Below the pieces are notes generated by a model. The model made no database searches and had not been told where the DNA came from. It saw nothing but the letters and a program-made list of their open reading frames with translations. A stretch of DNA of 60,707 nucleotides from Candidatus Cloacimonadota bacterium (lineage in GTDB: Bacteria > Cloacimonadota > Cloacimonadia > Cloacimonadales > JAMOQM01), in contig JAMOQM010000027.1 of NCBI GenBank assembly GCA_027064005.1, positions 1 to 60,707 on the forward strand. The letters are read 5' to 3'. Of this stretch, positions 1-56,358 are shown piece after piece. A program made the position numbers and the translations under genes. How positions within the stretch are numbered: position 1 is the stretch's first letter; each line of letters opens with the position of its first letter.

Positions 1-1686
1 GATATAATTAATTTTAATCCTGAAAATTTTAGCGGTTCTATATTCTTATCAGATGATATTCCTATTCCGAATTGCATTTATTTAGATAATACGAATAATA
101 ATATTTTTAATGCTAATTTTGAACTACACTATAGAAACAATAATATAATTACAAATCAATATTTCCAAATTTCGAATAATAATTTTACTGACAAATTCAA
201 TAGTATTAAAGATAAAGTTGAAAAAGTTATTAATGATCAAAACAAGATCAATTATGTATTAATTAAACTTTTTTGGAAACAATCTCAAGGTGTATGGGAT
301 GAGATTTTGCATAAAGTAGAGGAAAGCATTAAAGATGAAAATATAGATCAATTCAAGTTAGTTGAACAATTAATTAATTTTAGTGAAATAATTAATGAAT
401 TTGATAATAGTAATATACAAAGCACCTCTGAAATAAACAGAGTCTTTTTTGATGTAATTCATAAAAAGAAAATTCTATCTGTTACAGAAATTCAACATCC
501 ATTAAATTTGTTAATAAAGTATAAAAAATATTTCATGAATAATACTAATTTGGTATTGCAATTATTAAAAAAAGTAGAAAGGTTGAAAACTTTAAAAGAA
601 TATGAAAAATTGTTTTCATTGTTTACAGGAATCAAATTGCAATCACAATGCTCTGAGTTTTTAGTTGAATTAATAAAATTACATATAAAAGAAAATTATA
701 AATTTATTGATAATAAATTATTTGAAAATATTATTAATACAACTAATTATAAATATTTAAAAAACATTGAAAAAGAAATTGAAAATTTTTATAAATTAGT
801 TATAAGTAAACTGCAACGCCCCAAATCATTTGAACAACTTACAGATATTTACAAAATTATAAATAAAAGTGAGTTTAAAGATATCATCAAAAATAGAACA
901 GATTTATCAAAAAATGTTTTCCCACTTTACGAACGATCCTACTTTACAGAAAATTTTTATAATCAGTTAAGAAATCAAAATAATTTTGAAATTGCATTAA
1001 AGAAGATGAAACAAGCTGATCTGAATTTAGTGAAAATCTTCAACAAATTTAATGAAAATATAAAAGAAAGTATTATTGATTTAATTGATGAAAATTCAAT
1101 TAAGATAACTTTGGTAAATTCTGATTCAATTAGCAAAATAGCAAAATTAGTGACTCAATGGATTAATAATTTCAATTCTATACAAGAATTGATTCCGTAT
1201 AATTCAAAATTAATTAAAATCAATGATAATATAAATACTATTAAATCTATTTTGAGGAAATATACAAATGATATTCCTCAGAAATTTTCAAAAGTTTACT
1301 TATTAGATACAAATGTTTTTATTGATAAACCTGACATATTGGATTTGTTTAACCAAAAAAGAGATTACATTTTACTCTCAAAAAAGGTTATTGATGAACT
1401 TGATAAATTTAAGATTTCAAAACAAGAATCACAAAAAGCAATAAAATCAATAAATACCAACAAAAGTAACAACAATATTGTATTTGAAGAATCTGATGTT
1501 ACGCTTTTACCCATCGCATATGATAAGAAAAATCCTGATAATCAGATTCTTTCTATTGCATTGAAATATAAACACTCCGATCCAATTATTATTACATCGG
1601 ATATAAATTTCCAAAATAAAGCTTTTGGTGAGAAAATTAAAGTTATGTCTTTAAAACAATTTTTAGCAAAAAGAAAAAGGGGGTAA
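1..1686 (+). CDS. Large hypothetical protein with a C-terminal PIN (YlaK/PhoH2-type) ribonuclease domain. The 5' end lies outside the window.
   Basis: Frame 1 is open from base 1 into the listed 307..1686 ORF, so the listed TTG start is a window-edge artefact. The last ~130 aa carry PIN-type blocks: VYLLDTNVFID, VIDELDKFK, NPDNQILSIAL, IIITSDINFQNKA. The rest is Asn/Lys-rich with no recognisable motif. Confidence 0.6.
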   Translation, partial: DIINFNPENFSGSIFLSDDIPIPNCIYLDNTNNNIFNANFELHYRNNNIITNQYFQISNNNFTDKFNSIKDKVEKVINDQNKINYVLIKLFWKQSQGVWDEILHKVEESIKDENIDQFKLVEQLINFSEIINEFDNSNIQSTSEINRVFFDVIHKKKILSVTEIQHPLNLLIKYKKYFMNNTNLVLQLLKKVERLKTLKEYEKLFSLFTGIKLQSQCSEFLVELIKLHIKENYKFIDNKLFENIINTTNYKYLKNIEKEIENFYKLVISKLQRPKSFEQLTDIYKIINKSEFKDIIKNRTDLSKNVFPLYERSYFTENFYNQLRNQNNFEIALKKMKQADLNLVKIFNKFNENIKESIIDLIDENSIKITLVNSDSISKIAKLVTQWINNFNSIQELIPYNSKLIKINDNINTIKSILRKYTNDIPQKFSKVYLLDTNVFIDKPDILDLFNQKRDYILLSKKVIDELDKFKISKQESQKAIKSINTNKSNNNIVFEESDVTLLPIAYDKKNPDNQILSIALKYKHSDPIIITSDINFQNKAFGEKIKVMSLKQFLAKRKRG

Positions 1687-1687
1687 T

Positions 1688-2812
1688 ATGAGCCGAAATG
1701 CAAGTCTGATTTATGAATTAGAGAGAAAAAGAAGAAGAGAATTATATCTAAAAAGAATTGAAGAAAACACTAAATATTATCTTGCAAAATATTCAGAAAT
1801 GTATAATGCATTCAGAAGAAGTGGTTACTATGATTTAATTCCTGATGAAATGAAACAGCTTAAAATTGATTTAAGTTTAATTAGAGAACAAGTAAATAAT
1901 GATATTGAAAGAGCAAATCAGATTTCTAAAAATGTTGGGGATTATATTTATAGTCTTAAAAGTATAGCTCACGAAGTAGAAATACAAGAAAAAGAAATTT
2001 CTATTAAAAGACAAGCAAGGCAACAAATTGAAAATCGGCTAAAGACAACTGAGATTACCAAACAATTAGACAAACTACTTTCTTCTATTTCAGATCCTAT
2101 TATTAGAGATTTTGCTTTTGATTTAAGCTGGGACATAAAAGAGAAATTAAAAAAATCACAGGATTCTGATTTTGAAAAAATACAGAATGAGTTTGAGACT
2201 ATTTTAAATGAAGCTAAAAAGAAGGCGAAAGAATGGAAAAATAGCAAAAAAGTAATAAACAAGAAACATTCAGTAAAAGAAAAAATCAAAATACAAATCG
2301 AAAGAATTGAAAAATCAAAGAAAGAAAACAGTGAAGAAATAGAAAAAATTCTCAAAAACCTGAAACAAGCCAAGAAGAGTATTGATAATACAAATATAAC
2401 GGATATAGAAGAAGTTGTTTTGGAAAATTCAAAAAAAGCAGAGGACGTAATTTTAGATGAAAGAATTAGACGAGAGACAGTAAAATCACTTTACAATATT
2501 CTTAATCAGCAAGGCTTTATTGTCTCAAAACCAAGAATTGATACAAAAGAGAATATAGTTATTTTATCTGCTAAAAAACCATCTGGAAATAAAGCAAATT
2601 GCAAAATCAAACTTGATGGTAAGTTTTCTTATGAATTCGATAATTATAAAGGTATGAGTTGTAATAAAGATATTGAGGATATGAAAAAACAATTAAATGA
2701 AATTTACGGTATAAAATTGAAGGATGAGCAAATAACTTGGGAAAATCCAAATAGAATTTACAAAGATGCAGAAAGTATGCTATCATCAAATACAAATGAA
2801 AACGGAAGGTGA
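1688..2812 (+). CDS. Coiled-coil protein of unknown function (374 aa)
   Basis: ATG lies 1 nt after the upstream stop and is preceded by AGGGGG. A long Lys/Glu-rich, heptad-like central region is followed by a ~110-aa globular C-terminus. No catalytic motif was recognised. Confidence 0.55.
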   Translation: MSRNASLIYELERKRRRELYLKRIEENTKYYLAKYSEMYNAFRRSGYYDLIPDEMKQLKIDLSLIREQVNNDIERANQISKNVGDYIYSLKSIAHEVEIQEKEISIKRQARQQIENRLKTTEITKQLDKLLSSISDPIIRDFAFDLSWDIKEKLKKSQDSDFEKIQNEFETILNEAKKKAKEWKNSKKVINKKHSVKEKIKIQIERIEKSKKENSEEIEKILKNLKQAKKSIDNTNITDIEEVVLENSKKAEDVILDERIRRETVKSLYNILNQQGFIVSKPRIDTKENIVILSAKKPSGNKANCKIKLDGKFSYEFDNYKGMSCNKDIEDMKKQLNEIYGIKLKDEQITWENPNRIYKDAESMLSSNTNENGR

Positions 2813-2814
2813 AT

Positions 2815-4713
2815 ATGAAAACTTATAAACCAAAATGGATTGATAACCTTGAAAGAGAAATTCAAATAAGAAAAGCAATTATCTTAAATGGCAATATAAA
2901 CGATCTTTATTATAATTCGCAGAAAGATTCCTATCATTCAATTATTAACATAATATCAAGTATTGGGAATAAATATTATGATAGAATTATTAATTGGGAT
3001 CAATTCAGTGGTGTTTCTGATAAAGAGGGCATTAAAGAATTAGAAAGTAGTTTTCAAAAAGAAGAAGATTCAAGCTCTGCTAATAATGATGAATACGATA
3101 TGGGAAATGATAGCTATAATGGCACACAATCATTAAAGAGATCTTATGATAAACCAGAAGATTTTTTCCCTTTAATTTATCACACTTTTGTTGAGGAAAG
3201 TGACAAAAATAAACTCTTCATTATTGATTTCTCTCAATATATTTTTAATAATTCAAACACATTACCTCAAGATGAAAGAAAATGGCTTAATATTTTAGAT
3301 AAAATTCTTCGATATTCGGATACAGATATTACAAATATTGATAAAAAATCAAATTCAATTATTTTCTTATTCAATGGTCAAAACAGTTTACCATATTCTT
3401 TAATCAATAACAATCCGTTAATTACTTCAATTTCAATTCCATTCCCTGAAAGAAAAGATAGAGCATTCTTCGTAAAAAAGTACCTAAACTATTTTAAATT
3501 TGATAAAGAGCTAAACCAAAATAATGAGAACGATAATATTGTTATTGATGATTTTATTGATTCATTAGATGGATTTTGCATTAGAGAGATCAAACAATTA
3601 GTTAAACTATCAAAAAAATATAAAGATAAAGACCAAAACTCTCTTAATCCTAAAAAACTTATAAATTTATTTAAATACGGAATAACCAGCAGTCCTTGGG
3701 AGGATTTATCAAAAGAAAAATTAAAGACAATTCAAGAAACTTTAAAGAAAAGAGTAAAAGGACAAGATGAAGCAATTGAAAAGGTAAAAGATGTTATTGT
3801 TCGTGCTTTTACTGGACTATCTGGTATTCATCATTCAGCAAAAAAAAGTAAACCAAAAGGAATCTTATTTTTTGTGGGTCCAACAGGTGTTGGCAAAACT
3901 GAATTAGCAAAAAGTTTAGCTGAATTTCTTTTTGGAGATGAAGAAGCTTGTCTGCGTTTTGATATGTCTGAATACAATCATGAGCATAGTGACCAAAGAC
4001 TTGTTGGTGCACCTCCTGGTTATGTTGGTTATGAGAGAGGTGGTCAACTAACCAATGCTGTTAAGGAAAAGCCTTTTTCAATTATTTTGTTTGATGAGAT
4101 TGAGAAAGCTCACGGCAAAATTTTGGATAAATTTCTCCAGATATTTGAAGATGGCAGGCTAACAGATGGTAAAGGCGAGACAGTATCATTTTCTGAAAGC
4201 ATAATAATTTTCACATCAAATATTGGAACAACTTCAGAAGCATCAGTAAATCAGCAAATTAAAAAGAAAATTGATATGAATTATGATGAACTAAAAAATT
4301 ATTTTATCGAAAAAGTAAATACTCATTTTTCTGCACCTGATTCTGAAGGTGGATTAGGTAGACCTGAACTTTTAAATAGGATTGGCGACAACATTGTAGT
4401 TTTTAATTATATAAAAAATGAAGATATCATGTTTGAAATTACAAAAGCAAAGTTAAAACCTTTATATGAGTTTATTAAAGAAAAATATAAAATGGAAATT
4501 TCTTTTGATGATGAAGAGAAATCTTTAAGAGCACTTATTAAAAAAGTAAATAAAGAACATGGAGGTAGAGGTATCCTTAATGTTATTGAACCTAAAATAA
4601 TTGATCCTTTAGCAGATTTTATTTTTGAGAACAGCGAAATTTTTTATCCAGGTAGAAAAATAATCATCTCACAAATTGCTAACAAAACTTTATTTGAATT
4701 TGAGTTAAAATAA
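2815..4713 (+). CDS. ClpA/ClpB-like AAA+ ATPase with a degenerate N-terminal AAA-like half and an intact Clp D2-type module
   Basis: Walker A FFVGPTGVGKTELAK; Walker B IILFDEIEKAH; GAPPGYVGYERGGQLT; sensor-1 IIIFTSN; GRPELLNRI; sensor-2-like GGRGILN. The N-terminal ~330 aa keep AAA-like strands (LFIIDFSQ, ISIPFPERKDR) but have no P-loop. An alternative GTG start at 2809 overlaps the upstream stop. Confidence 0.8.
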   Translation: MKTYKPKWIDNLEREIQIRKAIILNGNINDLYYNSQKDSYHSIINIISSIGNKYYDRIINWDQFSGVSDKEGIKELESSFQKEEDSSSANNDEYDMGNDSYNGTQSLKRSYDKPEDFFPLIYHTFVEESDKNKLFIIDFSQYIFNNSNTLPQDERKWLNILDKILRYSDTDITNIDKKSNSIIFLFNGQNSLPYSLINNNPLITSISIPFPERKDRAFFVKKYLNYFKFDKELNQNNENDNIVIDDFIDSLDGFCIREIKQLVKLSKKYKDKDQNSLNPKKLINLFKYGITSSPWEDLSKEKLKTIQETLKKRVKGQDEAIEKVKDVIVRAFTGLSGIHHSAKKSKPKGILFFVGPTGVGKTELAKSLAEFLFGDEEACLRFDMSEYNHEHSDQRLVGAPPGYVGYERGGQLTNAVKEKPFSIILFDEIEKAHGKILDKFLQIFEDGRLTDGKGETVSFSESIIIFTSNIGTTSEASVNQQIKKKIDMNYDELKNYFIEKVNTHFSAPDSEGGLGRPELLNRIGDNIVVFNYIKNEDIMFEITKAKLKPLYEFIKEKYKMEISFDDEEKSLRALIKKVNKEHGGRGILNVIEPKIIDPLADFIFENSEIFYPGRKIIISQIANKTLFEFELK

Positions 4714-4716
4714 TTT

Positions 4717-5298
4717 ATGTTAAAACTAAATATAGCAAATATTATTAATTGCACAGAAGTTGAAGGTCCTGGTAAAAGATTTGCCATTTGGGTTCAAGGA
4801 TGTTTGAAAAGATGCAAAGGATGTTGCAATCCTGAAATGTTAGATTTAAAATCAAATCAAATTATCAGCATTCATAATGTTATTAAGGAAATTCAAAAAG
4901 CTGTAATAAATTATGAGATTGAAGGTATTACATTTATCGGAGGTGAGCCATTTTTACAAGCAAAAGGTTTATCCGAAATTGCTAAATATTGCAGAAAAAA
5001 TAATTTATCAGTAATGATTTTTTCAGGTTATACCTTAAAAGAAATTCAAAATGGTGAATTTGAAGAGTCTCAGAAATTACTTGATAATTGTGATATTCTT
5101 GTTGATGGGGAATTTGAAATAAATAACCTTGATTATGAAAGAAATTGGATTGGCTCCAAAAATCAAAAAATTCACTATTTATCAGATTTTTATTCAAAAG
5201 GTATAGAGTATTCAAAAGAATTCAAAGAAGGTTTAGAGTTTAGAATAATGAAAAATAATATTCAGTTTAATGGAGACCCTATTGGCTGTGAGTTGTGA
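4717..5298 (+). CDS. NrdG-like radical-SAM activating enzyme (4Fe-4S single-cluster family), orphan: no glycyl-radical partner is visible
   Basis: N-terminal GPGKRFAIWVQGCLKRCKGCCNPE (CxxxCxxC cluster next to the GPG motif), GITFIGGEP, and DILVDGEF, as in anaerobic RNR activases. The start is 3 nt after the AAA+ stop. Confidence 0.75.
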   Translation: MLKLNIANIINCTEVEGPGKRFAIWVQGCLKRCKGCCNPEMLDLKSNQIISIHNVIKEIQKAVINYEIEGITFIGGEPFLQAKGLSEIAKYCRKNNLSVMIFSGYTLKEIQNGEFEESQKLLDNCDILVDGEFEINNLDYERNWIGSKNQKIHYLSDFYSKGIEYSKEFKEGLEFRIMKNNIQFNGDPIGCEL

Positions 5299-5307
5299 TG
5301 AAAAATG

Positions 5308-5386
5308 CCTTATAACACACGTGCCCACAATAAGCAAGTAGTGAAGCAAGAAGATTCGTGGCACACTCCACTCATTATTGGTATAA
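5308..5386 (+). repeat. Copy A of a recurrent structured intergenic element (long form)
   Basis: Shared architecture with copies B, C and D: 5' box YTAACACA, a variable segment, CGTGGYA, the hairpin GTGG-loop-CCAC, then CATTAYWSS. The 5' CCTTATAA can pair with the 3' TTATTGG. Copies A and C share the insert AAGCAAG.AG..A.GCAAGA.GA. Confidence 0.6.
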
Positions 5387-5431
5387 AAAAGATATTAATA
5401 GCTACGGCTAAATAATCAAAAGGAGGAAAAT

Positions 5432-5551
5432 ATGGAATATTCAACACCTGAAGTAATTGCAGTAAGTCTTGATGATCAAGAAACAGTCGCTACTGCTTCG
5501 ATGTCTTGTGAAGATCCTGATGAAGATTGTAGTACATGGCGATGGAGTTAA
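5432..5551 (+). CDS. RiPP precursor peptide (39 aa, not in the ORF track): MEYSTPEVIAVSLDDQETVATASMSCEDPDEDCSTWRWS
   Basis: AGGAGG RBS at 5421-5426, then ATG at 5432. The acidic leader is followed by a C-terminal core with two Cys and a WRW motif. Its stop lies just before the radical-SAM/SPASM gene, and the maturase's listed ORF overlaps it. Confidence 0.65.
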   Translation: MEYSTPEVIAVSLDDQETVATASMSCEDPDEDCSTWRWS

Positions 5552-5556
5552 AAAAA

Positions 5557-7080
5557 ATGGGAGAAGAAAAATCTTCTCCCGTTTTAAATTATTCAAACAT
5601 ACTTGGAGAAATAAAAATGATGTTTAAATTAAGAAATGATTCTTTCATTCGGATTTTTGATAATTTTGGATATATTGTAAATCAACAAAAAAAGAATGAT
5701 AGAATTTATGATAAAATTGGAAGTATCTTCTTACAACAAATCTTGAGAGAACCACAAGAAATAATTACCGTTACAAAAAAAATTGTAGATAAATTTAACG
5801 ATGTTCCATTTAAGAAAGTTTATGCTGATTTTAAAAATTTTCTATCGGAGTTAGAGAGGAATTATTTTATATTGACTGCTAATTCTTTGAATGAACTTAA
5901 CAAAAAAGAAGCCAACCATGAAGAAAATATTGATAACTTCTCGAATAAGTCATTGATTGGATCCAAAAGTCCTAAACTTGAAAGCACTAAAACTTTCTTA
6001 AATAAGTATTTTTTTACAAATCCTACAGTTTTTGCTCTTCAAATAGAATTAACAACATTTTGTAATGAACATTGTTTGCATTGTTATATTCCGCAAAAAT
6101 ATAGAAATACATTACTCACTTATAAGAGTATTTGTGGTATCCTAGATCAAGCAAGAGATATGCAAACTCTTGCTGTATCCTTTTCAGGTGGCGAACCAAT
6201 GTCTCATCCTGATTTTATTAAGATATTAGAGTATGCGAGAGAAAAAGATTTTTCTATTACTATCTTAAGCAATTTGACATTATTAAATACAGAAATTTTA
6301 GAAACGTTGAAAAGAATTAATGTTAACCAAATACAAGTCTCATTATATTCAATGACACCAAAAATCCATGATTCTATTACAAAGATTGCGGGCTCTTTTA
6401 GTAAAACCTATAATGCTATTAAATCATTAATCAAAAATAATATTCCTCTTCGAATTAGCTGTCCATTAACAAAACTCAACTACATATCTTACAAAGAAGT
6501 ATTACAATTTGGGCAAAAAAACAATATTAAAGTTGATACAGATTTTACTATTATGGCAAGATCCGATTATAGTACAGACAACCTTCAATTCAGATTGACT
6601 TCAGAAGAAATTCAGACAGTATTACATGATATTTTTATTTATAACAGCAAATACACACAATCTTTACTGAAATACAAACCTTATTCTGTTGAAGAAAAGC
6701 AACAAGATAACGAACGGCCACTTTGTGGTGTTGGATTTAATAAAATTGCTATATCTAGTTCAGGAAATGTCATTCCTTGTGCAGGATGGCACAACCTTAA
6801 ACTAGGGCATATTGGTGATGATAAACTTTTAGATATTTGGACTAATTCTTTTCATTTAAATAATATTAGAAAGTTAAAACAAAAAGACTTTTCAGAATGC
6901 GTTAATTGTGAAGCAAAGAAATACTGTTCTATATGTCTATTAAGAAATTTTAATGAATATAATGGAGATATGTTAAAGTTTAATAAAATTCAGTGTGAGG
7001 TAGCATTTCAGACAATGAATACTGCAAAAGAATTATTTTTTGATAAAAATATTCATTTTGAAGAGCGACTGGACATGTAA
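5557..7080 (+). CDS. Radical-SAM/SPASM peptide maturase with an N-terminal PqqD-like RiPP-recognition (RRE) region
   Basis: Radical-SAM motif ELTTFCNEHCLHCY plus SFSGGEP. SPASM signature CGVGFNKIAISSSGNVIPC ... CVNCEAKKYCSIC ... CEVAF. The N-terminal FKLRNDSFIRIFDNFGYIVNQ is PqqD-like. The listed start at 5536 overlaps the precursor. ATG 5557 and ATG 5617 both follow a GGAG. Confidence 0.85.
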   Translation: MGEEKSSPVLNYSNILGEIKMMFKLRNDSFIRIFDNFGYIVNQQKKNDRIYDKIGSIFLQQILREPQEIITVTKKIVDKFNDVPFKKVYADFKNFLSELERNYFILTANSLNELNKKEANHEENIDNFSNKSLIGSKSPKLESTKTFLNKYFFTNPTVFALQIELTTFCNEHCLHCYIPQKYRNTLLTYKSICGILDQARDMQTLAVSFSGGEPMSHPDFIKILEYAREKDFSITILSNLTLLNTEILETLKRINVNQIQVSLYSMTPKIHDSITKIAGSFSKTYNAIKSLIKNNIPLRISCPLTKLNYISYKEVLQFGQKNNIKVDTDFTIMARSDYSTDNLQFRLTSEEIQTVLHDIFIYNSKYTQSLLKYKPYSVEEKQQDNERPLCGVGFNKIAISSSGNVIPCAGWHNLKLGHIGDDKLLDIWTNSFHLNNIRKLKQKDFSECVNCEAKKYCSICLLRNFNEYNGDMLKFNKIQCEVAFQTMNTAKELFFDKNIHFEERLDM

Positions 7081-7118
7081 CTTTTCTAATAGAATAGTTT
7101 TCTGAAAAATCATTGTTA

Positions 7119-7183
7119 TTAACCGGTAACACAGCTATCCGTGCCTATCGGCGTGGTAGCTGCCACCCATTACACCCGATTAA
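7119..7183 (+). repeat. Copy B of the recurrent structured intergenic element (short form)
   Basis: TTAACCGGTAACACA ... CCGTGCC-TATC-GGCGTGG ... GTGGTAGCTGCCAC CCATTACACCCGATTAA. The ends are complementary, and the inner helix keeps pairing through G-U wobbles relative to copy D. Confidence 0.6.
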
Positions 7184-7222
7184 TTTTTTTATATTATGGA
7201 ATTAAATGAAAGGAGGAATTAA

Positions 7223-10102
7223 ATGAAAAGAATTTACTTAAATACAATTATGGGGATACAATTTTTATTATTATGTTCGCAACTATTTTCTATCACATTT
7301 GCCGAGCGACAAATTGTTGACTTTCCTAATATTACAAATCCCAATTTCACTATTTCGTGTGATTTGGATAATAATGGATTTTCTGATGCAATTTCAGCTT
7401 CTCTTGATAATAAGCTTGTTTGGTTTCCTAGAACGAATAGCCAAATTGATGATAGTATTGAGGAAGAAATTGTAATTGCTGAACTTCCTGCGAATATGGG
7501 TGAAGTTACAGAAATTAAATGTGCTGATTTTGATGATGATGATGATTTGGATCTTTTAGTTGCTTCGGAATCTAAGTTATATTTAGTTGAAAATATAGAT
7601 AGTTGCGATAGTTTTGTTTTGCATTTGATACAATCATTTGAGACAGAAGTAAAGCAAAATTTTGATATTGGAGACTACAATTCCGATGGCTTAACAGATT
7701 TTATTTTAGCACGAGGAGAAGAAGAATCTACAATTAATATTTTTTTGAATACAAATAATTTAACTTTTTCACAAACACAAATTGCAGGAAATGGTATTCC
7801 GCTTGTAATATCTTATGATAAAGATAATGATGGAGATTTGGATTTGTTTGCAAATTGCAATGGATTCAATTATTTGGAAAATGTTGGTGGAGATTCGTTA
7901 TTTGTAATCACTGACACTCTTTCTACTGAAATGAAAAATGCTCAAATTATTGATTTTGACAATGATGGCAATATTGATATTGCCGGAATAATTAATGATG
8001 AAGAATTACATTTTGGCTGGATTGAAAACAATGATGATTCTTTCTCGGAATTTGAGATTTTATTTATTCCTGAACCATTTACTCAAATGAAAATTGTCAA
8101 TTCAGATTCAGATGATGATTACGAGATTTTCTTTATCAAAAATGTCGATTTATTTTATTATGACTACATTTCTGAAAATAATTATGAATTTGTTGATATT
8201 GGCATTTATACATCCACATTTGTTAATGACAGCTATGTTTCTTTTTTTGATTTTGCTGATTTTGATAATGATAACGATATTGACATTTTAATTTCATTTT
8301 CCGGAGGGGAATTTAATTTTGATCATAGATTTTTGGGTATTTGTGAAAATGTGAACGGTTTGTTTGGGAATGAGCATATTTTTAACCCTAGCTTTACACA
8401 ATCACCAATAGTTACATCTTTTGATATAGATTGTGATTCTGATTTGGATTTACTCATGGTAAATGGACAAAATATTTATTGGTCTAGAAAAAACGGTGCT
8501 GAATTTGACAAAGTCAAGATTTTGTATCATGCAGAAGATATTGTGAGATGGATTACGATAAGGGATATAAATTTTGACGGAAAATCTGATATTATTCTTA
8601 TGTTTGAAGATTATCCTTCAGATGGAGATTATAAAGTTTTGCTTAATAATTCTGATGGAGAAACAGATTTTTCTCTTCAACCTTTGAATAATATAGGAAT
8701 TGAGTATTCCAAAAGTTACGATTTCATTGATTTGGATCAGGATAATGACCTTGATTTTATCTGCATCAAAGGTGAAAACAACCGGCTTTATTGGAGTGAA
8801 AATCTTGGAAATTATACTTTTGGGAATTCAGAACTTTTATTACCGAATCAAGAACATATTGTTCGCTTTAAATTCACCGATATAGATAATGATGGAGATT
8901 TAGATTTATTAGCCGGAACCGAATTTAATTATAGTAACCGTTTTATATTTATTGCTACAAATAATAATTTAAATTTTACTATAACAACCAATTTTCCTGA
9001 ATTACCAGCCAGACCAAAAGCATTCTACTATGAGGATTTGGATAATGATGGAAATTATGAACTAATCGTTCATGTAGATGGATATAGTGAAATGCTTTAT
9101 ATCTATAAGAACATTTCTGATAATTTTCAAGATTATGAACTTTACATTTTGAATACGAACACAAACTGGGCTCATGGAATTAGGATGATAAGATTTGCAG
9201 ATTTGGATAATGATGGAGATAAAGATCTAATTGCAGGAAGAAGTTACTATGAAGAACAATATTCCGAATTAGCAATTTTGGTTTGGACAAATAATCAATC
9301 CGAATCATACTTTGATGAAAGCCATTTAGCTTATCCGCTTTATCATGAAAGAGCTATAGGTCTAAGGTATATAAATATTGCCGATTATAATAGCGATGGT
9401 AAACAAGATATTTTTTGCTATATTTATCGCCAATGGGATGAATTTTCTCAAAGTGAGTGGGATTATTATCTAAATACATCAACTTCTTTCCAAAACTTCC
9501 CAAGTTCGTTTGAATTGATGTTTCCACAAAATTATGCTGAAAATTTACCTACAAGACCCGAATTTATTTGGACAGCTTCAACAGATAACGATCCTAACGA
9601 CTTTGTCGAATATCAAATTGAAATTGCAACTGATAGCTTATTCAATGAAATTGTATTTTCCGAAAGTGAAATCAGTGATACACTTTTTATCATGCCAAAT
9701 AATTTGAGTACCAATACTCAGTATTTTTGGAGAGTAATCGCAGAAGATACTACAGGAAATCAAGCTATATCGGATTTTTTCACATTTTCAACAGGAAATG
9801 TTACTTCAAATTCTGAAGAAATAATTCTGACAAAAACAGAATTAAAAGGTAATTATCCAAATCCATTCAACCCAACTACAACAATAAAATTTTCAGTTAA
9901 AAAGAATGAGGTTGGAAAATTATCTATTTACAATGTAAAAGGGCAAATTGTAAAAACATTCGCTGAATTTTCCGAAGGTGACCATTCGGTTATTTGGAAT
10001 GGGAAGAATAATCATGGAGAAGAAGTTAGCTCCGGAATTTTCTTCTATAAACTTCAAACCAAATTTTATCAGAAAATAAAGAAAATGATTCTGTTGAAAT
10101 GA
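7223..10102 (+). CDS. Secreted FG-GAP/VCBS-repeat protein with an Fn3-like module and a T9SS C-terminal sorting domain
   Basis: AGGAGG RBS and a signal peptide. At least 12 Ca-binding-like DxDxDG repeats (ADFDDDDDLDLL, YDKDNDGDLDLF, TDIDNDGDLDLL and others). C-terminal GNYPNPFNPTTTIKF...GIFFYKL...KKMILLK. Confidence 0.85.
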   Translation: MKRIYLNTIMGIQFLLLCSQLFSITFAERQIVDFPNITNPNFTISCDLDNNGFSDAISASLDNKLVWFPRTNSQIDDSIEEEIVIAELPANMGEVTEIKCADFDDDDDLDLLVASESKLYLVENIDSCDSFVLHLIQSFETEVKQNFDIGDYNSDGLTDFILARGEEESTINIFLNTNNLTFSQTQIAGNGIPLVISYDKDNDGDLDLFANCNGFNYLENVGGDSLFVITDTLSTEMKNAQIIDFDNDGNIDIAGIINDEELHFGWIENNDDSFSEFEILFIPEPFTQMKIVNSDSDDDYEIFFIKNVDLFYYDYISENNYEFVDIGIYTSTFVNDSYVSFFDFADFDNDNDIDILISFSGGEFNFDHRFLGICENVNGLFGNEHIFNPSFTQSPIVTSFDIDCDSDLDLLMVNGQNIYWSRKNGAEFDKVKILYHAEDIVRWITIRDINFDGKSDIILMFEDYPSDGDYKVLLNNSDGETDFSLQPLNNIGIEYSKSYDFIDLDQDNDLDFICIKGENNRLYWSENLGNYTFGNSELLLPNQEHIVRFKFTDIDNDGDLDLLAGTEFNYSNRFIFIATNNNLNFTITTNFPELPARPKAFYYEDLDNDGNYELIVHVDGYSEMLYIYKNISDNFQDYELYILNTNTNWAHGIRMIRFADLDNDGDKDLIAGRSYYEEQYSELAILVWTNNQSESYFDESHLAYPLYHERAIGLRYINIADYNSDGKQDIFCYIYRQWDEFSQSEWDYYLNTSTSFQNFPSSFELMFPQNYAENLPTRPEFIWTASTDNDPNDFVEYQIEIATDSLFNEIVFSESEISDTLFIMPNNLSTNTQYFWRVIAEDTTGNQAISDFFTFSTGNVTSNSEEIILTKTELKGNYPNPFNPTTTIKFSVKKNEVGKLSIYNVKGQIVKTFAEFSEGDHSVIWNGKNNHGEEVSSGIFFYKLQTKFYQKIKKMILLK

Positions 10103-10160
10103 TTGGGGTAACAAAGCAATCCAAGCCCAATGAGCCAACAGGTTCTCAACTGTCCGATTC
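10103..10160 (+). repeat. Possible degenerate fifth copy (E) of the intergenic element
   Basis: GGGGTAACAAAGCAATCC..GCC...TCCGATTC resembles the 5' half and 3' tail of copy B. It lacks the GTGG-loop-CCAC hairpin. It sits directly after the FG-GAP gene stop. Confidence 0.25.
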
Positions 10161-10409
10161 AGATGTTGATGATATGGAAATTTTTTTTGATAATATGATT
10201 TAACTTTTGATTTACCCTCTGCTGCTGCATCTGTTATAAAAAATCGAGCAACAAATGAAGGAAAGAATGAATACTAAAAGGTGGTAGAATTTTAGATGAT
10301 TACGAATAAATGATGTTGTAATAATACCCCAAATTTCTTTTATTTGACATAAATTAAGTTTTCAAAGTTATGTTAAGAAGTTTTAAAATAATTATGAAAG
10401 GATTGAATA

Positions 10410-11237
10410 ATGAAAAGTAAAAAGATAAATGTGCAAGATATTGAAATAAATATAACTTCAATAAATGATGAAGATTACATTTCACTAACAGATATGTTAA
10501 AAGCTAAAGATGGTGATTTTTTTATTTCTGATTGGCTTAGAAATAGAAATACTGTTGAATTTCTTGGCATTTGGGAACGTATCTATAATCCAAATTTTAA
10601 TTATGGCGAATATGCCACAATTAGAAATCAGGCAGGCTTGAATAGTTACAAAATCAGTGTAAAAGAATGGACTGCTAAAACGAATGCAATTGGTCTAAAA
10701 GCAAAAGCCGGGCGATATGGCGGAACTTACGCTCATAAAGATATAGCATTTGAATTTGGTATGTGGATCAGTCCGGAGTTCAAGATATATTTAATCAAAG
10801 AATTTCAACGTTTAAAAGAACAAGAACAAAAACAACTCGGTTGGGATATTAAACGTAATCTAACTAAGATCAATTACAGAATTCATACAGATGCAATAAA
10901 AGAAAATCTAATTCCAAAAGAATTAACGGTAAAGCAAATGAGTATTATTTATGCAACAGAAGCTGATATTTTAAATATGGCTCTTTTCGGTAAAACAGCA
11001 AAACAATGGCGGGATGAGAATCCAAATAAAAAGGGAAATATCAGAGATTATGCCAATATTTCTCAATTAATATGCCTTTCTAATCTTGAAAATTTGAATG
11101 CACATTTTATCTACGAATCAATTGATCAAAGTGAAAGACTTAAGAAATTAAATTTAATAGCAATTTATCAAATGAAACTTTTGGTATTAGATAAAAACGT
11201 TGAAAAGCTTGAGATACAATCGAAAACTAAAAAGTAA
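10410..11237 (+). CDS. KilA-N domain DNA-binding protein
   Basis: ISLTDM...WLRNRNTVEFLGIWE...GRYGGTYAHKDIAFEFGMWISPEFKIYLIKEFQRLK is the conserved KilA-N family core common in FCB bacteria and their mobile elements. Confidence 0.8.
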   Translation: MKSKKINVQDIEINITSINDEDYISLTDMLKAKDGDFFISDWLRNRNTVEFLGIWERIYNPNFNYGEYATIRNQAGLNSYKISVKEWTAKTNAIGLKAKAGRYGGTYAHKDIAFEFGMWISPEFKIYLIKEFQRLKEQEQKQLGWDIKRNLTKINYRIHTDAIKENLIPKELTVKQMSIIYATEADILNMALFGKTAKQWRDENPNKKGNIRDYANISQLICLSNLENLNAHFIYESIDQSERLKKLNLIAIYQMKLLVLDKNVEKLEIQSKTKK

Positions 11238-11256
11238 TTATTGATTTAATGTTGTG

Positions 11257-11337
11257 AATAAGTCTGTAACACATTTACTCGCCAAGCAAGAAGAAACGCA
11301 AGATGAACGTGGCAGTGTCCGCCATTGCACCTATTTA
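11257..11337 (+). repeat. Copy C of the recurrent structured intergenic element (long form)
   Basis: AATAAGTCTGTAACACA ... GCCAAGCAAGAAGAAACGCAAGATGAACGTGGCAGTGTCCGCCATTGCACCTATTT. Same boxes and end complementarity as copies A, B and D. Confidence 0.55.
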
Positions 11338-11395
11338 AAGCAAACTTGTCATCCCCCCGATATTTTTCAAACAACACAAGCAAATTGTGTAGTAG

Positions 11396-11459
11396 AACAA
11401 TCTGCCAGATTGTTAAATAAATCCGCAAATTACCAAGTAGCACAATCTGCCAGATTGTT
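11396..11459 (+). repeat. Two copies of a ~35-nt direct repeat, each holding the palindrome ACAATCT-GCC-AGATTGT, spaced 45 nt apart
   Basis: Palindromes at 11397-11413 and 11442-11458. The flanks also repeat (GTAG.ACAATCTGCCAGATTGTT.A.TAATCC). Confidence 0.7.
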
Positions 11460-11494
11460 TATTAATCCTCAACCTGTTAAAATATTCTTTGATA

Positions 11495-11540
11495 GTAGAG
11501 ACGCCCAATTTGGGCGTCTCTACTATTTCGATTTTTTTTG
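11495..11540 (+). terminator. Rho-independent terminator
   Basis: Perfect 13-bp stem GTAGAGACGCCCA / TGGGCGTCTCTAC with loop ATT, followed by a T-rich tail (TATTTCGATTTTTTTT). Confidence 0.75.
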
Positions 11541-32410: not shown

Positions 32411-35400
32411 ATGAGTCGAACTAAACTCGGCGTGGTAGTATTTTTATTAATGTTCTCATTTGCTTTATGGGGACAGACAGTTGCTTGGACAGAAACATTT
32501 GATACAGATCCGGGTACTTGGACTTTAGATTCAAACTGGTCAATTGGTGGTGGTGAACTTAAACTTAATTGGAACCCATCAGTAGAAAATTATGATTTAT
32601 CTGCAATTTCACCGGAAATAACATTACCGGAAAATGTAGGTGATGTGATTATTTCTCAATATATTGATGACTATTCTGATGATACTGGTGAAATGATGGA
32701 AATATCCGTTATTGCCGGTGGGGAAGATAACGTTGTTTGGTCATACAATCTTGATGAAAATGATGATTGGGGTGTTACCGGAGGAGAAGATCTTCCTTTA
32801 TCATTAACAGATTATGCCGGTCAAACAATTCAATTAAAATTTAGAAGTACCGGTGGTACAACCTATAATTTTAATTTTTGGCACATTTATCAAGTAGATA
32901 TTATGGCTAATTTGGCTAATGATATGGCTGCTTTAACTGTAACCGGAAATGTAACTCCAACTGTAGGACAAGAAACAAATTATACCGTTACTGTAAAAAA
33001 CACATCTTCAAATCCACAATCTGACTATATAGTTAAATTAATGGGTGAAGGTGATGTTGAACTTAATAGTGTTGCCGGTCCTGCTTTGGACGCTAATGCT
33101 GAAGGACAAGTTGTTCTTGCTTGGACACCTGAAACAGCCGGAAATACTTTTATTTACGGTAAGGTAATTTTGGAAGGTGATGAATTTGCCGGGAACGATG
33201 TAACTCCTAATTTGAATATTGGTGTTCAAAACTCAGGTACAACAGGTATTACTATTGGTAATGGTCAAGATTTACAAAATCATTATCCAATTAACTTTTT
33301 CTGGAAAAGCAGTTTAAGTGAAACAATGTATTATCCTGAAGAAATTCAAGCTGGTGGTTTGCTTGAAGGTATCCAATATTATTATAATTTTGCTGAAGAT
33401 TTACCGGCAAAACAAGCTAACGTTTGGGTTGGCGAAACAACTGCCCAAGATTTTTCTGCAGGATGGATTCCTTCTACAGAATTAACTCAAGTTTTTTCAG
33501 GAACTTTAGATTATGTTACCGGAGACGGTAGTGTACATATTGTTTTTGATACACCTATTCCTTATACAGGTGGTAATTTAGTAGTATTATTAGAAAGACC
33601 TTTAGATGGTGATTATTATTCTTCATCTGATAAATTCTATACAACTACTTCTGAAGATCACCCTAACAGATCTATTTGCTATTATAGTGATTCCACTCCC
33701 GGTGATCCAACAGCTCCACCTGAAGGAACTGTAGAAAGTGTATTCCCTAATTGTACTTTATTTATGAATGTTCAAGGAATGGGAACACTCAACGGAGATG
33801 TTGTTGATGCCGATTCAAATCCATTAGCAAACGTTACAATTCACGGTGAAGATACTAACTTAACAACTATGACCGATGCAAATGGTCATTACAACTTTGC
33901 TTATTTCCCACAAGGAGATTATAATATTACTGCAAGTCTTCACGGATATGTAGATAACACACAAGCTGTTACTGTTGTTGAAGATGAAACTTCTACTTTA
34001 GATTTTTCATTAGTTCAACTTCCTACAGTTAATGTAACAGGAACTGTAACAAAAAGTGATACAGAAGAACTTGCTGAAGGTGCTGATATAAGTTTAGTCG
34101 GTTATGATGAAGAATATACTGCAACTACAGATGCTAGCGGTGCATTCGCAATCCCTGGCGTTTATTCAGGTCATGATTATGTGATTACTGTTCATGTTGA
34201 CGGATATCAAACTTATACATCAACCGTTAATGTTGGTGATGCAGATGTTGATTTACCTATCGTTGTTGACGAAGTAACTCATCCTGCAAGAGATGTTGTG
34301 GCTACTGTTAATGATAACAATGCTGATATTACTTGGAGATCTCCAGCTGACGGTACTGAAGTTGTTGAATTCCGTTGGGATGATGGTGTTGCAACAAGTC
34401 AATTAGGTTTTGGTTCTAATCCTTCATCAGTATTGGGTTCTTCACATATGAACAATGCTGTTATCAATGAAGTAAGTTGGTATTTAACAAGTGAAGCTGC
34501 TCATACTGAAGCTGTAATCTACTTATTTGGTTTAGATGAAACCGGAATGCCTGATGTAAATCAATTATTATTTGAATCGGATCCGGTTCCTAATGTTGAT
34601 GATCAATGGAATACTTACACTCTTCCTGCTCCAATAAATGCTCCAAACGGATTCTTTGTTGGTATCTGTACACCTAACATATTTACCGCTATTGCTACTG
34701 ATGATGGTGTTGATGAACCATACGTATTCCAAGAAGGTACACAATGGGGTATTGCAGATTGGACAGACGGTTCTAACGATTGGTTAGATGTTGGTCCTGC
34801 AGGATTCCCATATAACTTTTTAGTAAGAGCTCAGGGTATCGATAATGGTCCTTTAGCTAGAAATAATAATATTGCAATGAACCACAAAGTTAACAATTCC
34901 GGTTTAACCGGTTCATCTTTAAATAGAAGAGTTGTAACAGGAACTCCAGCTTGGAATTCTGACAGAACATTTGAAAGCTATTCGGTTTATCGCCTTTTAT
35001 TAGGTAATGAAGCAGATGAAAATACTTGGACTGAAATTGCTTCTGCTATTCCTGATACAAATTACACTGATACAGATTGGGCATCTCTTGAGACCGGTTT
35101 ATATGAATATGCTGTTAAAGCTAATTTCTCTAACAATGTTCAATCAGACCCTGCTTTCTCAAATTGGTTACCTAAAGATATGACTTCGGCATTTGATGTA
35201 AATGTAACAACAAATGTTGGTGATGATCCTGAAGGTGCCGATGTACATCTTGTTTGTACTACTGCTGATCCTGACGGAAATATTCCAGAATATGATGCTG
35301 TTGTAACAAATGGTACGGCTCATTTTGATGATGTTTGGAACGGCATTTATGATATAACTGTTTCTTTAGCCGGTTTTGATAATGCTGTTGTTGAAGGTGT

Positions 35401-38323: not shown

Positions 38324-41300
38324 ATGAATCAAACTAAAATTAGTATATTAGTGCTATTGTTAATGTTTTCATTTACTTTATGGGGACAAACGATTGCTTG
38401 GTCAGAGTCATTTGATACAAATCCGGGAACTTGGACTCTAGAATCAAATTGGGAGATTTCTAATAATAGATTAGAATTATCTTGGCATCCAACGACAGAG
38501 AATTATGATATGACAGCAATATCTCCTGAAATAATTTTACCACAAAATGTAGGTGATTTAATTATTTCACAATATATTAGCGATTATTCTATTGATACAG
38601 GTGAAGTAATGGAAATATCCGTTATTGCCGGTGGGGAAGAGAATCTTATTTGGTCTTACAACCTTGACGAAAATGATGACTGGGGGGTTGATAACGGAGC
38701 GGATCTTCCATTATCGTTAACAAATTATGCCGGTCAAACAATTCAATTAAAATTCAGAAGTTACGGTGGTACAACCTATAATTTTAATTATTGGCGTATT
38801 TATCAAATAAACATAATGGCTAATTTGCCCAATGATATGGCTGCTTTAAATGTAAGCGGAAATACAACACCAACAGTTGGACAAGAAACAAGTTATACCA
38901 TTACTATAAAGAACGTTTCTTCAAATCCACAATCTGACTATATAGTTAAATTAATTGGTGAAGGCGATGTTGAACTTGATAGTATTGCCGGTCCTGCTTT
39001 AGATGCAAATGCTGAAGAGCAAGTTGTTCTCGCTTGGACTCCTGAAAATGCTGTAAATACTTTCGTTTATGGTCAAGTGATTTTAGCTGGTGATGAACAT
39101 CCTGAAAATGATAGAACACCGAATCTTAATATAGGTGTACAAAATACTACCACAACTGCGATAAACATAGGTACTGGTATTGATTTACAAAATCACTTGC
39201 CTATCGATTTTCGTTACAACAGTAGTTTAAGTGAAACCATGTTTTATCCTGAAGAAATTCAAGCCAATGGGATGATTAATGGAATTCAATATCATACTAA
39301 CTTTGCTGAAAATTTATTTGGTCAGATTACTAATGTATGGGTAGGTGAAACTACGCTTGATAATTTTTCCGGAGGCTGGATTCCTTCTACAGAATTAACT
39401 CAAGTTTTTTCAGGAACTTTAGATTACACTTTTGGTGACGGGACTGTTTATATTGGTTTTAATTCACCAATATATTATAATGGTGAAAATTTAGTTGTAA
39501 TGATAGAAAAACCTTTGGAAGAATCATATTCTTATCACGATAGATTTTATTCCACAACTTCTATAGAACATCCTGCAAGATCAATTTGTTATCATAATGA
39601 TGGTAATCCGGCTGATCCTGCATCTCCACCAACGGGGATATTAGAAGACATATTTCCTAATTGTACTTTATTTGTGGATGGTCAAGGAATGGGTTCTCTT
39701 AGTGGTAACGTTGTTGATGCTGAATCAAATCCATTAGCAAACGTAACTATTCATGGTGAAAATACGAACTACTCAACTTTAACCGATGCAAATGGTCATT
39801 ACGACTTTGCTTATTTTCCACCTGGAGATTACAACATTACTGCAAGCCTTCATGGATTTATTGATAGTACGCAACCGATTGTTATTGTTGAAGGCGAAAC
39901 TTCTACTTTAGATTTTTCTCTTGAACTATCGCCCTATGTTAGTGTAACAGGAACTGTCACAAAGAGTGATACTCAAGAGCTTGTTGAAGGAGCTGCAATA
40001 ACTTTAGTTGGTTATAATGAAGAATATGATGCTTCAACATCTGCAGATGGTACTTTTTCAATTGATAATGTTTATCCTAATCATGATTATGTGATTACTG
40101 TTAGTGTTGACGGATATCAGACTTATACTTCAACCGTTACTGTTGGTGATGCAGATGTTGATTTGGCGATCATTGTCAATGAAGAAATCCATTCGGCAAG
40201 AGATGTTGTTGCAGTAATAAATTCTAATAACGCCGAGATTTCATGGAAAGCTCCTATTGATTATTCTCAACTAACTGAATTTCGTTGGGATGATGGAGTT
40301 GCGACAGGTCAATTAGGATTTGGACCTCAACCTTCGGCAGTTTTAGGGTCATCATATATGAATAATTCTGTGATTTGCGACGTAAGTTGGTATTTAACAA
40401 GCAATATTTCTCATAACGAAGTAATTGTCTATTTATTTGGTTTAGATGAAACCGGAACACCGGATGTAAATCAATTATTATATCAATCCGGCTTGATTCC
40501 TAACATTGATGATCAATGGAATACATTCACTCTTCCTGTTCCAATAAATGCTCCAAACGGTTTCTTTGTTGGTGTTTGTACACCGAATTTATTTACCTCT
40601 CTCGCTGTTGATGACGGCGTTGGTGAACCATACGTATTCCAAGAAGGTACACAATGGGGTATTGCTGATTGGACAGACGGTTCAAATAGTTGGACAGATA
40701 TTGGCCCTGCAGGTTTTCCAAATAACTTTTTAATAAGAGCTAACGGTCTTGATAATGGTCCTTTAGTTAGAAATAATAATATTGCAATGAATCATAAAGT
40801 TAACAATTCCGGCTTAGTAGGTTCATCTTTAAATAAAAAAGTTGTAACAGGAACTCCAACTTTGAACGTAAATAGAGTTTTTGAAAGTTATTCGGTATAT
40901 AGATTTTTATTTGGAAACGAAGTTGATGAAACTACTTGGACGGAAATTGCTTCTGCTATTTCTGATACAAATTATACTGATACAGATTGGATGTCTCTTG
41001 ATACCGGTGTATATGAGTATGCTGTTAAAGCAAATTTTTCAAATAATGTTCAATCAGATCCTGCTTTCTCAAATTGGTTACCCAAAAATCTTACATCTGC
41101 ATTTGAGGTAAATGTAACAACAAATGTTGGTGATGATCCGGAAGGTGCAGAAGTACATCTTGTTTGTAATACTACCGATCCGGACGGAAATATTCCTGAA
41201 TATGATGCTGTTGTGGAAAATGGTACAGCACATTTTGATGATGTTTGGATTGGTGTTTATAATATATTAGTTTCTTTAGAAGGTTTTCATAATGCTGTAG

Positions 41301-52129: not shown

Positions 52130-52838
52130 TATTTTTTCCCTTCATTATTAGATTGTAGTTTATTGTAAATATTTTTTATTAATTTGTTTTGCAAATTACG
52201 TTTATAAATTGCCATCATGTTTTGATTGATTCAGGTTAAAGACATTAAACTACTGAGTATAGTTATAGGAATTCAGGGTTTTACTTTTATTGTAAAAAGG
52301 GAAATGAAATGTTGATAAGATTGATAACGGTTTTGAAAAATTCTATTTGAGAAAAAGATTTGTCTTTATTATCAACAATTTCCAGCCGTTATGATGAATT
52401 ATTTTCGCATTAATAGTTGTAAAATTCCAAATGATATTTCCTTCTTAATCTGTTCAACAATATATTTCATCCCCTTTTTTCACCGCAAAGTTGTTCACCA
52501 TTTAGAAGCAATTACGATAAGAGATATTTTTTCTAAGGACTTATCAACATTCGAAAATTTTGCTTATTTGAAGAAATTACCTTTCCGATAATTGCTAAAA
52601 CATTAACCGAAATGAAGATTAAATCTGCCATTATAGAATTACGTGGTTTTCGCTTTTCAAATAAAAGGACAGGTATCTATTCTTATAAATTAATTTTTTG
52701 GAATTATCTTATTCAATTTATGGCTTTGGGTGGATTGGTTATCTTTTGTATTGTGTAAAAAATGAGTGATTAATAAAAAATGTTTTATAATATATAAAAA
52801 AGACTTTACAACTTTTTGTTAATATTCAAAATTTTATA

Positions 52839-52930
52839 CACTCCGAGTCTTTATCTTTAAGGAGAATTCTATGAGGAAAGACCGATGGGCTCAAAAGGAA
52901 ACTTTTGAACCTCCCACCTTTGGAAAGGAG
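52839..52930 (+). ncRNA. Candidate Moco/Tuco (molybdenum or tungsten cofactor) riboswitch in the aor leader
   Basis: CACUCCGAG ... GAGGAAAGAC ... GGGCUC, the hairpin CAAAAG-GAAA-CUUUUG (GNRA loop), then CCUCCCAC and AAAGGAG (SD). These are the blocks I recall as conserved in the Moco RNA motif. Not verified with a covariance model. Confidence 0.5.
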
Positions 52931-52940
52931 ATAAAAAAAA

Positions 52941-56332: not shown

Positions 56333-56358
56333 AGTAAAAATTAAATCCGGAAGGAAAT

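Follow-up and report, generated by a model that had tools for sequence, protein, structure and literature searches.

Probable attC-type recombination sites of an integron-like system in Cloacimonadota, accompanied in relatives by tyrosine recombinases without an I2 domain

We analyzed a 60,707-nt stretch of a Candidatus Cloacimonadota genome (contig JAMOQM010000027.1, hereafter the window) that carries four copies of a structured intergenic element. These copies, together with their relatives in other genomes and metagenomes, are very probably attC-type recombination sites delimiting the gene cassettes of an integron-like system in Cloacimonadota. The element has an attC-like structure with a covarying stem, a constant position and orientation with respect to genes, sequence polymorphism that starts at its crossover point, and a complementarity between cassette starts and site arms that is the signature of former circles; in relatives, moreover, it adjoins tyrosine recombinase genes. 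An earlier note, made from the letters of the window alone, had described the element but found no match to attC, even though attC layout, position at cassette boundaries and circle signature are all present. The likeness to attC probably escaped that note because the site carries A↓TTA instead of the G↓TTRRRY of integrons (the arrow marks the crossover).

The pattern TAACAC..CGTGG..CATT has four matches in the window, all on the plus strand and where the earlier note had placed its four copies, against 0.04 expected, and none of 100 shuffles reached this number. TAACACA, CGTGG and CATT do not vary among the four, whose GC content (38-48%) compares with about 30% for the window. Two covariance models were used, a first one (R1) and a second one with the loops trimmed (R2). 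Loci from other genomes and metagenomes carry numbers with an L; L003 is Candidatus Tenebribacter burtonii and L018 a Tenebribacter contig. The sites of the window are as follows:

5301 to 5392, plus strand: site A, long-loop form (R1 80.8 bits, E = 1.6e-18; R2 36.5 bits)
7115 to 7187, plus strand: site B, short form (R1 46.9 bits; R2 31 bits)
11255 to 11342, plus strand: site C, long-loop form, partly degenerate (R1 64.2 bits; R2 matches the 5' part only)
56262 to 56338, plus strand: site D, isolated copy (R1 64.9 bits; R2 48.8 bits)
10085 to 10160, plus strand: site E, possible decayed site (TAAC at 10109-10112, immediately 3' of the stop of a gene for a 959-aa protein)

Site A begins 10 nt past the stop of the gene at 4717-5298. 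Its TAAC lies at 5313-5316 and its CATTA at 5373-5377, and the L stem pairs GTGcCCAC (5321-5328) with GTGGCAC (5358-5364), with a purine-rich loop at 5329-5357. In site B (TAAC at 7127-7130), the stem CAGCTAtCCGTGCC/GGCGTGGTAGCTG is shifted in register and closes a loop of 4 nt. Site C has its TAAC at 11267-11270 and CATTG as its 3' box, while site D (TAAC at 56274-56277) pairs 56281-56289 with 56305-56314 around a bulged C at 56309 and has an upper extension, CCC/GGG. The insert of about 25 nt shared by A and C, already pointed out in the earlier note, is the variable terminal loop, rich in AAGCAAGAAG. The crossovers would lie between 5374 and 5375 (A), 7169 and 7170 (B), 11324 and 11325 (C), and 56320 and 56321 (D). 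A search of the window with R2, which copes poorly with long loops, yielded no additional copy. Site E, formerly listed as a degenerate copy at 10103-10160, was scored by neither model (E > 10) and is at most a relic. By eye, a weak likeness can be seen between its 5' arm AATGATTGGGGTAAC and the reverse complement of the sequence that follows site B (TTACACCCGATTAAT), provided that a gap is introduced; ungapped, the agreement is 4/12, the background of non-cognate pairs.

The consensus of the element reads R-Y-Y-TAAC-ACAG-GCACTCCAC-(loop)-GTGG-C-AGTGC-CCAnCC-ATTA, in which GCACTCCAC pairs with GTGG(C)AGTGC and leaves a single C unpaired. Read from 5' to 3', the element consists of TAAC, a spacer that stays unpaired, a stem of 9 bp whose bulged C is nearly invariant, a loop, a second spacer and CATTA; the spacer is CACAG on one side and CCAnCC on the other, the loop measures from 4 to about 100 nt, and total site lengths lie between 46 and 120 nt. 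The R box is formed by the 5' arm, which ends in TAA(C), pairing with (A)TTA and the bases that follow. TAAC is found in 30 out of 30 sites, whereas the RYYY portion of the R box differs from cassette to cassette. At the 3' box, 29 sites have ATTA (27 of them as CATTA) and the remaining one has CATTG; GTT does not occur.

The sequence of the stem varies while its pairing is kept, which indicates a helix maintained through compensatory changes: GTGcCCAC/GTGGCAC in copy A and the shifted stem of copy B have counterparts elsewhere such as CGTGT..GTGC/GCAC..ACACG or GTGCTCCAAG/CTTGGCAGCAC. Among 24 model-aligned sites, 92.3% of the cells were paired, compared to 22-47% when the partner strand was slid. 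An independent, anchor-trimmed MAFFT alignment of 30 sites gave 94.4% against 19-40% in the slid controls; eight of the nine stem pairs change on both sides, and the covariation score was reached by none of 500 shuffles. The helix that had been proposed between the segment after TAACACA and the CGTGG box is therefore real, as the core of this bulged-C stem. The earlier note was also right that the element is a structured nucleic acid and not a peptide. Folded one by one, only B (z-score -3.2) and D did better than shuffled sequences among the four window copies.

Other structural claims of that note needed trimming. TAACACA and CGTGG are indeed invariant among the boxes said to be shared, but the tail CATTAYACC(Y)GATT is kept only as CATTA. 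Three helices had been described, two of which are real. The helix between the terminal arms holds only partly: its UAA/UUA pairs are invariant, while the outer bases belong to two different cassettes, and this explains the mismatches that had seemed conserved. The third, a GTGG-loop-CCAC hairpin, occurs in A, B and D, but C lacks it, as do most relatives (L001, L003, L007, L008, L010). With it falls the idea of two competing folds, and of the RNA switch that these implied. A comparison of the window and 15 loci with Rfam, at gathering thresholds and at E ≤ 10, gave nothing over the sites, in agreement with the earlier note, which could match the element to no riboswitch; to our knowledge, Rfam holds no attC family.

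When GTDB species genomes were scanned with the exact pattern, ten loci were obtained, of which five are true relatives (L001, L003, L007, L008, and L010), all with about 30% GC and four labeled as Cloacimonadota, L003 included; the remaining five were chance matches. The covariance-model search that the earlier note had advised, along with a scan of metagenomes, yielded further copies, and true matches were confined to Cloacimonadota-like DNA. In a scan of viral contigs, none of four pattern matches was confirmed by R1 at E ≤ 1. As for L007 (JAMOQG010000107.1), which is labeled Peptostreptococcaceae, its site and flanks are identical to those of L012 (Ga0256842_1004248), both sequences being 9075 nt long; the contig is probably mis-binned, with a site of the Cloacimonadota type.

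Mapping against gene ends, another check that had been suggested, showed that all copies are co-oriented with genes, start from a few to about 45 nt past a stop codon and end 25-50 nt upstream of the next start codon. Homology among site D, L012 and L015 extends over the full site and some 130 nt of upstream sequence, and ceases immediately past CCATTA. In addition, the sequence just past a site is complementary, in reverse, to the 5' arm carried by the next site downstream. Such a match would be predicted if every cassette had gone through a circular stage in which it held one complete site, the circle then being opened at A↓TTA. This complementarity amounts to 20/20 and 19/20 in L034, 18/20 in L028 (with a perfect run of 15 nt) and 12 nt in L013. 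The mean perfect run past TTA is 6.6 nt for 16 cognate pairs and 0.7 nt for 240 non-cognate ones, and runs of at least 5 nt occur in 12 of the 16 cognate pairs against 0.8% of the others.

The relationship also has predictive value. When the reverse complement of the 12 nt past an attI-like region or a site was used as a query, it located unseen sites at gene ends (L028 11771, L033 11863, and L018 7345) and recovered the known site of L008. The new sites are of the long-loop form, with the same architecture, and had been overlooked by the first model. A separate structure scan added L028 12924, L033 15124, 15581 and 18153, and L013 5403, whose arms match the preceding tails in all cases except L033 15124. 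Considering the homology breakpoint, the circle signature and this prediction together, the 3' end of the element corresponds to a recombination crossover. Upstream of sites A and D, the arm-complement search for left cassette ends returned only noise. The cassettes code for restriction-modification (R-M) systems, HEPN, Fic and NACHT proteins, the PDC-S22 candidate defense gene, secreted proteins and small open reading frames (ORFs). This content is similar to what has been reported for chromosomal integrons. In L018, for example, the sites set apart gene modules that all lie on one strand: a type III R-M system, a 253-aa gene of unknown function, and genes for a type IIG R-M enzyme and for a membrane protein.

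In L008, a single cassette (a methyltransferase and a CfrBI-type endonuclease) lies between the element and a gene coding for a tyrosine recombinase of 371 aa, whose homologs form a large family in Cloacimonadota. In every context fetched (L008 and L022-L036), about 100 nt of conserved sequence resembling an attI site follow the recombinase gene and end in ...ATATG↓TTA. The integrase protein is the same in L026 and L027, and again in L030, L031 and L032; the members of each group have identical attI regions, and their contigs diverge right past ATATGTT(A). Many assemblies break just 3' of this site. Arrays start right after the recombinase gene and the attI-like site in L008, L028, L033 and L034, and run on the same strand, with five model matches within 9 kb in L034, at least two sites in L028 and at least four in L033. 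Such an arrangement, attI followed by an array of cassettes, is that of an integron.

The best solved-structure match of the recombinase is the integron integrase VchIntIA (PDB 2A3V; E = 4.7e-40), but the alignment is split: residues 182-242 of this protein (IntI4), which hold the I2 domain, have only 18 counterpart residues in the recombinase, which aligns with XerA without interruption. Likewise, the NCBIfam integron integrase model TIGR02249 matches in two stretches with a score of 204.6, under its cut-off of 265. The protein has a SAM_4 N-terminal domain, the full catalytic set and a C-terminal ...SPLD tail, plus an extra N-terminal region of about 75-90 aa, and its gene runs in the same direction as the cassettes. 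In most of the loci fetched, there is a second recombinase gene directly upstream, a paralog about 40% identical to the active one and also devoid of I2:

L022, 9046-9945: paralog gene
L024, 9059-9892: paralog gene
L026, 8885-9955: paralog gene
L028, 8959-9999: paralog gene
L030, 9115-9951: paralog gene
L034, 8995-9999: paralog gene

In all six aligned loci, the Arg of box I is replaced in the paralog (GLRLSE to GLTPSE), and so is the His-x-x-Arg of box II (HSLRH to TILKN); in L028 the Tyr has also changed to Phe. To judge from these replacements, the paralog is probably an inactive partner subunit. L033 has no separate paralog, and its recombinase has a hybrid N-terminus. In L028, a third and unrelated tyrosine recombinase gene, of the Phage_int_SAM_5 type (7472-8560), is found just upstream of the recombinase pair.

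We also observed another repeated sequence, module 2 (ATCAACATTCCGCTTCGCTCCATGTTGATTAACGGC(C)GGCGTG.C.CTA...AGACTCGCAAC...), which begins exactly at the crossover TTA of the attI-like site and of several cassette sites, and within which contigs tend to end:

L024, 11165-11311: module 2
L025: module 2
L015, 5321-5404: module 2
L018, 11530-11627: module 2
L001, 1-35, minus strand: module 2
L013, about 220-243, minus strand: module 2, partial
L014, about 466-489, minus strand: module 2, partial

It has no Rfam match and no copy in the window. By analogy with the IS1111-attC elements and the group IIC-attC introns, module 2 may be a multi-copy element with the sites as its target, or else a common non-coding cassette.

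The cassette sites share with integron attC sites, including those of clusters of attC sites lacking integrases (CALINs) and especially the Vibrio cholerae repeats, an imperfect hairpin in which the R box bears AAC, the central spacer is unpaired, the L stem has an extra base without a partner, and the terminal structure varies. Also shared are the placement at the 3' end of the cassette, in one orientation, with the crossover at the 3' R box, and the complementarity of the cassette start to its own R'' arm. As in sedentary chromosomal integrons, sites resemble each other within the lineage and the cassettes carry defense genes and genes of unknown function. The sites depart from the textbook description of attC (Nivina et al. 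2016, PMC5027507) in two respects. R' is A↓TTA instead of the canonical G↓TTRRRY, so that the last R-box pair is C.A on the top strand or T.G on the bottom strand; and the single, near-invariant extra C is on the 3' half of the top strand, or the 5' half when the bottom strand is read, which is the arm opposite to the canonical one (PMC5027507). Another difference from integron attC sites is that the R-box pairing in reconstituted cassette circles can reach 17-20 bp. The attI-like site, on the other hand, has G↓TTA as in integrons, TTA being common to it and to the cassette sites.

On the side of the enzymes, the recombinase has in common with IntI (VchIntIA, 2A3V) the SAM_4 domain, the catalytic set, the ...SPLD tail and the adjoining attI-like G↓TT site; it differs in its lack of I2, its extra N-terminal region, the gene being co-directional with the cassettes and the paralog with replaced catalytic residues that is usually found upstream. 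A second parallel is the integration of the CTX phage at attP(+) by XerC/XerD, where Xer-like enzymes without I2 also act on a hairpin substrate, as we propose here, and where only one of two paralogous subunits needs to be active, avoiding a second strand exchange (a parallel discussed in PMC7790495). However, our system involves many promoterless cassettes in arrays and not one phage genome at dif, its site does not mimic dif (11-6-11), and the paralog appears permanently inactive. The archaeal integrons (Ghaly et al. 2022, PMC9668308) are similar in that they come from metagenome-assembled genomes, have attI immediately downstream of the integrase and are mostly CALINs, but their IntIs keep the additional domain and their attCs fit standard models, unlike the case described here (PMC9668308).

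If the recombinase does act on these sites, it would cut and exchange strands between A and TTA at the 3' end of the site, with another such site or the attI-like site (...ATATG↓TTA) beside the recombinase genes as the partner. Exchange at [A/G]↓TTA, in which a folded site would meet either a second one or attI, would excise cassettes as circles and insert them in one orientation, the folded single strand being the putative substrate. From the geometry of the junctions, we infer that the exchanged strand would be the bottom one, as in integrons, reading 5'-...TAA↓T in the site and 5'-...TAA↓C in attI. As to the strand that folds, the indications diverge: the last pair of the R box, which is invariant, favors the bottom strand (T.G, versus C.A on the top), wobbles in the stem favor the top strand, and the DNA folding energies of 13 reconstituted sites are equal for the two strands (-307 vs. 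-313 kcal/mol). The inactive paralog, for its part, might sit at the L stem within the synapse and thereby prevent a second exchange of strands, the task ascribed to I2 in integrons and to inactive XerD in CTX phage integration. More generally, we tentatively suggest, as a possibility somewhat short of likely, that Cloacimonadota have their own, separate lineage of integron-like elements, in which A↓TTA hairpin sites are recombined by Xer/IntI-like enzymes that never acquired I2, and in which the catalytically dead paralog or the extra N-terminal domain would stand in for I2 in recognizing the folded site and blocking second strand exchange.

Several observations weigh against an integron-like role of these sites. 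The 3' box is A↓TTA and not G↓TTRRRY, and the extra base is on the arm opposite to that of canonical attC. The recombinase lacks I2, a domain that, according to published work, defines IntI and is required for recombining attC sites (PMC7790495; PMC9668308, citing Messier and Roy 2001); the system thus lacks two defining features of classical integrons, the I2 domain and the GTT core. G.T wobbles in the stem favor the top (coding) strand by 14 to 5, which would also fit a role at the RNA level. In the window, no tyrosine recombinase was found among the 30 ORFs scanned with Pfam (other ORFs of at least 100 aa were not part of the scan), and the attI motif is at chance level, with a 14-nt pattern that is too narrow for most loci. 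Complementarity between arms and tails is also at background within the window (6/12 from A to B; 4/12 ungapped from B to E). Finally, other assemblies showed no gain or loss of cassettes at the array at 5.3-11.3 kb: they have the same gene order, or their contigs stop early, 20-35 nt past site B or just past site C. The weak complementarity and the unscored site E fit old, decaying cassettes.

Three other explanations can be considered, which jointly retain a small share of the probability. The one that survives best, although we regard it as unlikely, is that these are ordinary attC sites in a plain CALIN, served by a canonical I2-bearing IntI located elsewhere, and that the adjoining I2-less recombinases are unrelated Xer-like enzymes. 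In its favor, the AAC triplet and the general plan of the sites agree with canonical attC, CALINs occur commonly and across many taxa (PMC8618304, PMC9668308), and no recombinase was found among the window ORFs scanned. However, R' is ATTA in 29 of the 30 sites and GTT in none, the arrays of four independent contigs start at a conserved site just downstream of an I2-less recombinase, and the 5' end of the first cassette there matches the arm of its own site; no canonical IntI was seen in the loci fetched, although these cover little sequence.

A cis-acting RNA in the 5' untranslated region of the downstream gene, be it a riboswitch, a protein-binding leader or a processing or stability element, is very improbable. 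It would suit a GC-rich element in a 30% GC genome that shares the coding strand with the next gene, precedes by 25-50 nt a start codon with a strong Shine-Dalgarno sequence, and has a covarying stem in which G.U pairs outnumber A.C; besides, attC hairpins are known to influence the translation of downstream cassettes (PMC8876359). But the downstream genes are unrelated in function (a peptide precursor and maturase pair, a secreted protein, R-M systems, HEPN, and others), there is no Rfam match even at E ≤ 10, the alternative fold is not conserved, and for two of the four copies in the window the folding was no better than that of shuffled sequences. Above all, it leaves unexplained the homology breakpoints, the complementarity of arms and tails across whole cassettes and the link to attI and the recombinase.

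Least probable of all is a selfish or structural intergenic repeat without a role in cassette exchange (a repetitive extragenic palindrome or bacterial interspersed mosaic element, a miniature inverted-repeat transposable element, or a terminator-insulator), which agrees with short palindromic sequences in several copies per genome but not with their single orientation relative to genes, the lack of terminal inverted repeats with target duplications, the absence of Y1/RAYT transposases from the Pfam domains of the genes scanned or called (there is only a fragmentary DDE_3 in L020), the lack of a T run after the stem (none of the four copies was called a terminator on the plus strand) or the gene-content breakpoints marked by the sites. 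Two further candidates were discarded. Sigma-54 and extracytoplasmic function promoters, examined by eye, are incompatible with a box spacing that varies by up to about 75 nt and with the wrong TGGCA..TTGC spacing, and sites of the Xer/dif type are about 28 bp long, with 11-bp arms and a 6-8 bp spacer, compared to hairpins of 46-120 nt with a covarying stem and a variable loop.

Under the cassette-site reading, the window contains a three-cassette array at 5.3-11.3 kb and a single site at 56.3 kb. As no recombinase was found among the window ORFs scanned, these form orphan, CALIN-like arrays, the CALIN label for sites A, B and C (within 6 kb) holding only if non-canonical sites count as attC. 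The features of the array are the following:

5375 to 7169, plus strand: cassette 1, a 39-aa ORF (5432-5551) and a radical-SAM/SPASM enzyme (5536-7080; Pfam), bounded by sites A and B
7170 to 10160, plus strand: cassette 2, a 959-aa FG-GAP protein (7223-10102) with a C-terminal sorting signal of the type IX secretion system, ending in relic E
10161 to 11324, plus strand: cassette 3, a KilA-N protein (10410-11237), ending in site C
11491 to 11537, plus strand: terminator-like hairpin, perfect over 17 bp and with a T run, 3' of the last array site

The 39-aa ORF (MEYSTPEVIAVSLDDQETVATASMSCEDPDEDCSTWRWS) overlaps the start of the radical-SAM/SPASM gene, and the two look like the precursor and the maturase of a ribosomally synthesized and post-translationally modified peptide (RiPP), within one cassette. 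The 959-aa protein matches Pfam FG-GAP_3 and, weakly, Por_Secre_tail. The KilA-N protein (Pfam KilA-N, E = 8.9e-26) matches the PADLOC candidate defense family PDC-S22 over its full length (E = 6.5e-131). Read in this way, the RiPP pair, the secreted protein and the candidate defense gene stand as separate modules between look-alike repeats. The hairpin at 11491-11537 may mark the transcriptional end of the array. At 11380-11465 and 11491-11527 (plus strand) are two 41-nt direct repeats, each with the palindrome ACAATCTGCCAGATTGT, followed by this 17-bp hairpin, all of them within the 300-nt gap between site C and a CCA-adding-enzyme-like gene.

Upstream of site A (307-5298, plus strand) is a block of four genes coding for a PIN-domain protein, an unknown protein, a ClpB-like AAA ATPase that matches the PADLOC families PDC-M37B and DolB, and a small radical-SAM (Fer4_12) protein; this block is a possible defense system. 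Farther along, the only real Rfam match of the window is a molybdenum cofactor (Moco)/tungsten-cofactor riboswitch (52829-52946, plus strand; RF01055, 65.8 bits, E = 1.3e-13), directly upstream of an aldehyde:ferredoxin oxidoreductase gene (52941-54761). At 32411-37711 and 38324-43621 (plus strand), there are tandem paralogs of 1766 and 1765 aa, 79% identical, with signal-peptide-like N-termini.

A published list of integron-bearing phyla omits Cloacimonadota (PMC8618304), and our full-text literature searches found no paper connecting integrons with this phylum. If our interpretation is correct, cassette platforms would extend to a phylum missing from such lists, and tools keyed to I2, and perhaps to GTT, would under-count systems of this kind. 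The acquisition of I2 is currently viewed as the step that enabled the recombination of single-strand hairpins (PMC7790495, PMC9668308). The Cloacimonadota enzymes would represent another molecular solution to hairpin recombination, possibly a heteromer of active and inactive subunits, and a direct test case for the origin of integrons from Xer-like enzymes. If the system is indeed a separate lineage that never acquired I2, cassette capture would have been invented here independently, or else a stage of integron evolution that precedes I2 would have survived.

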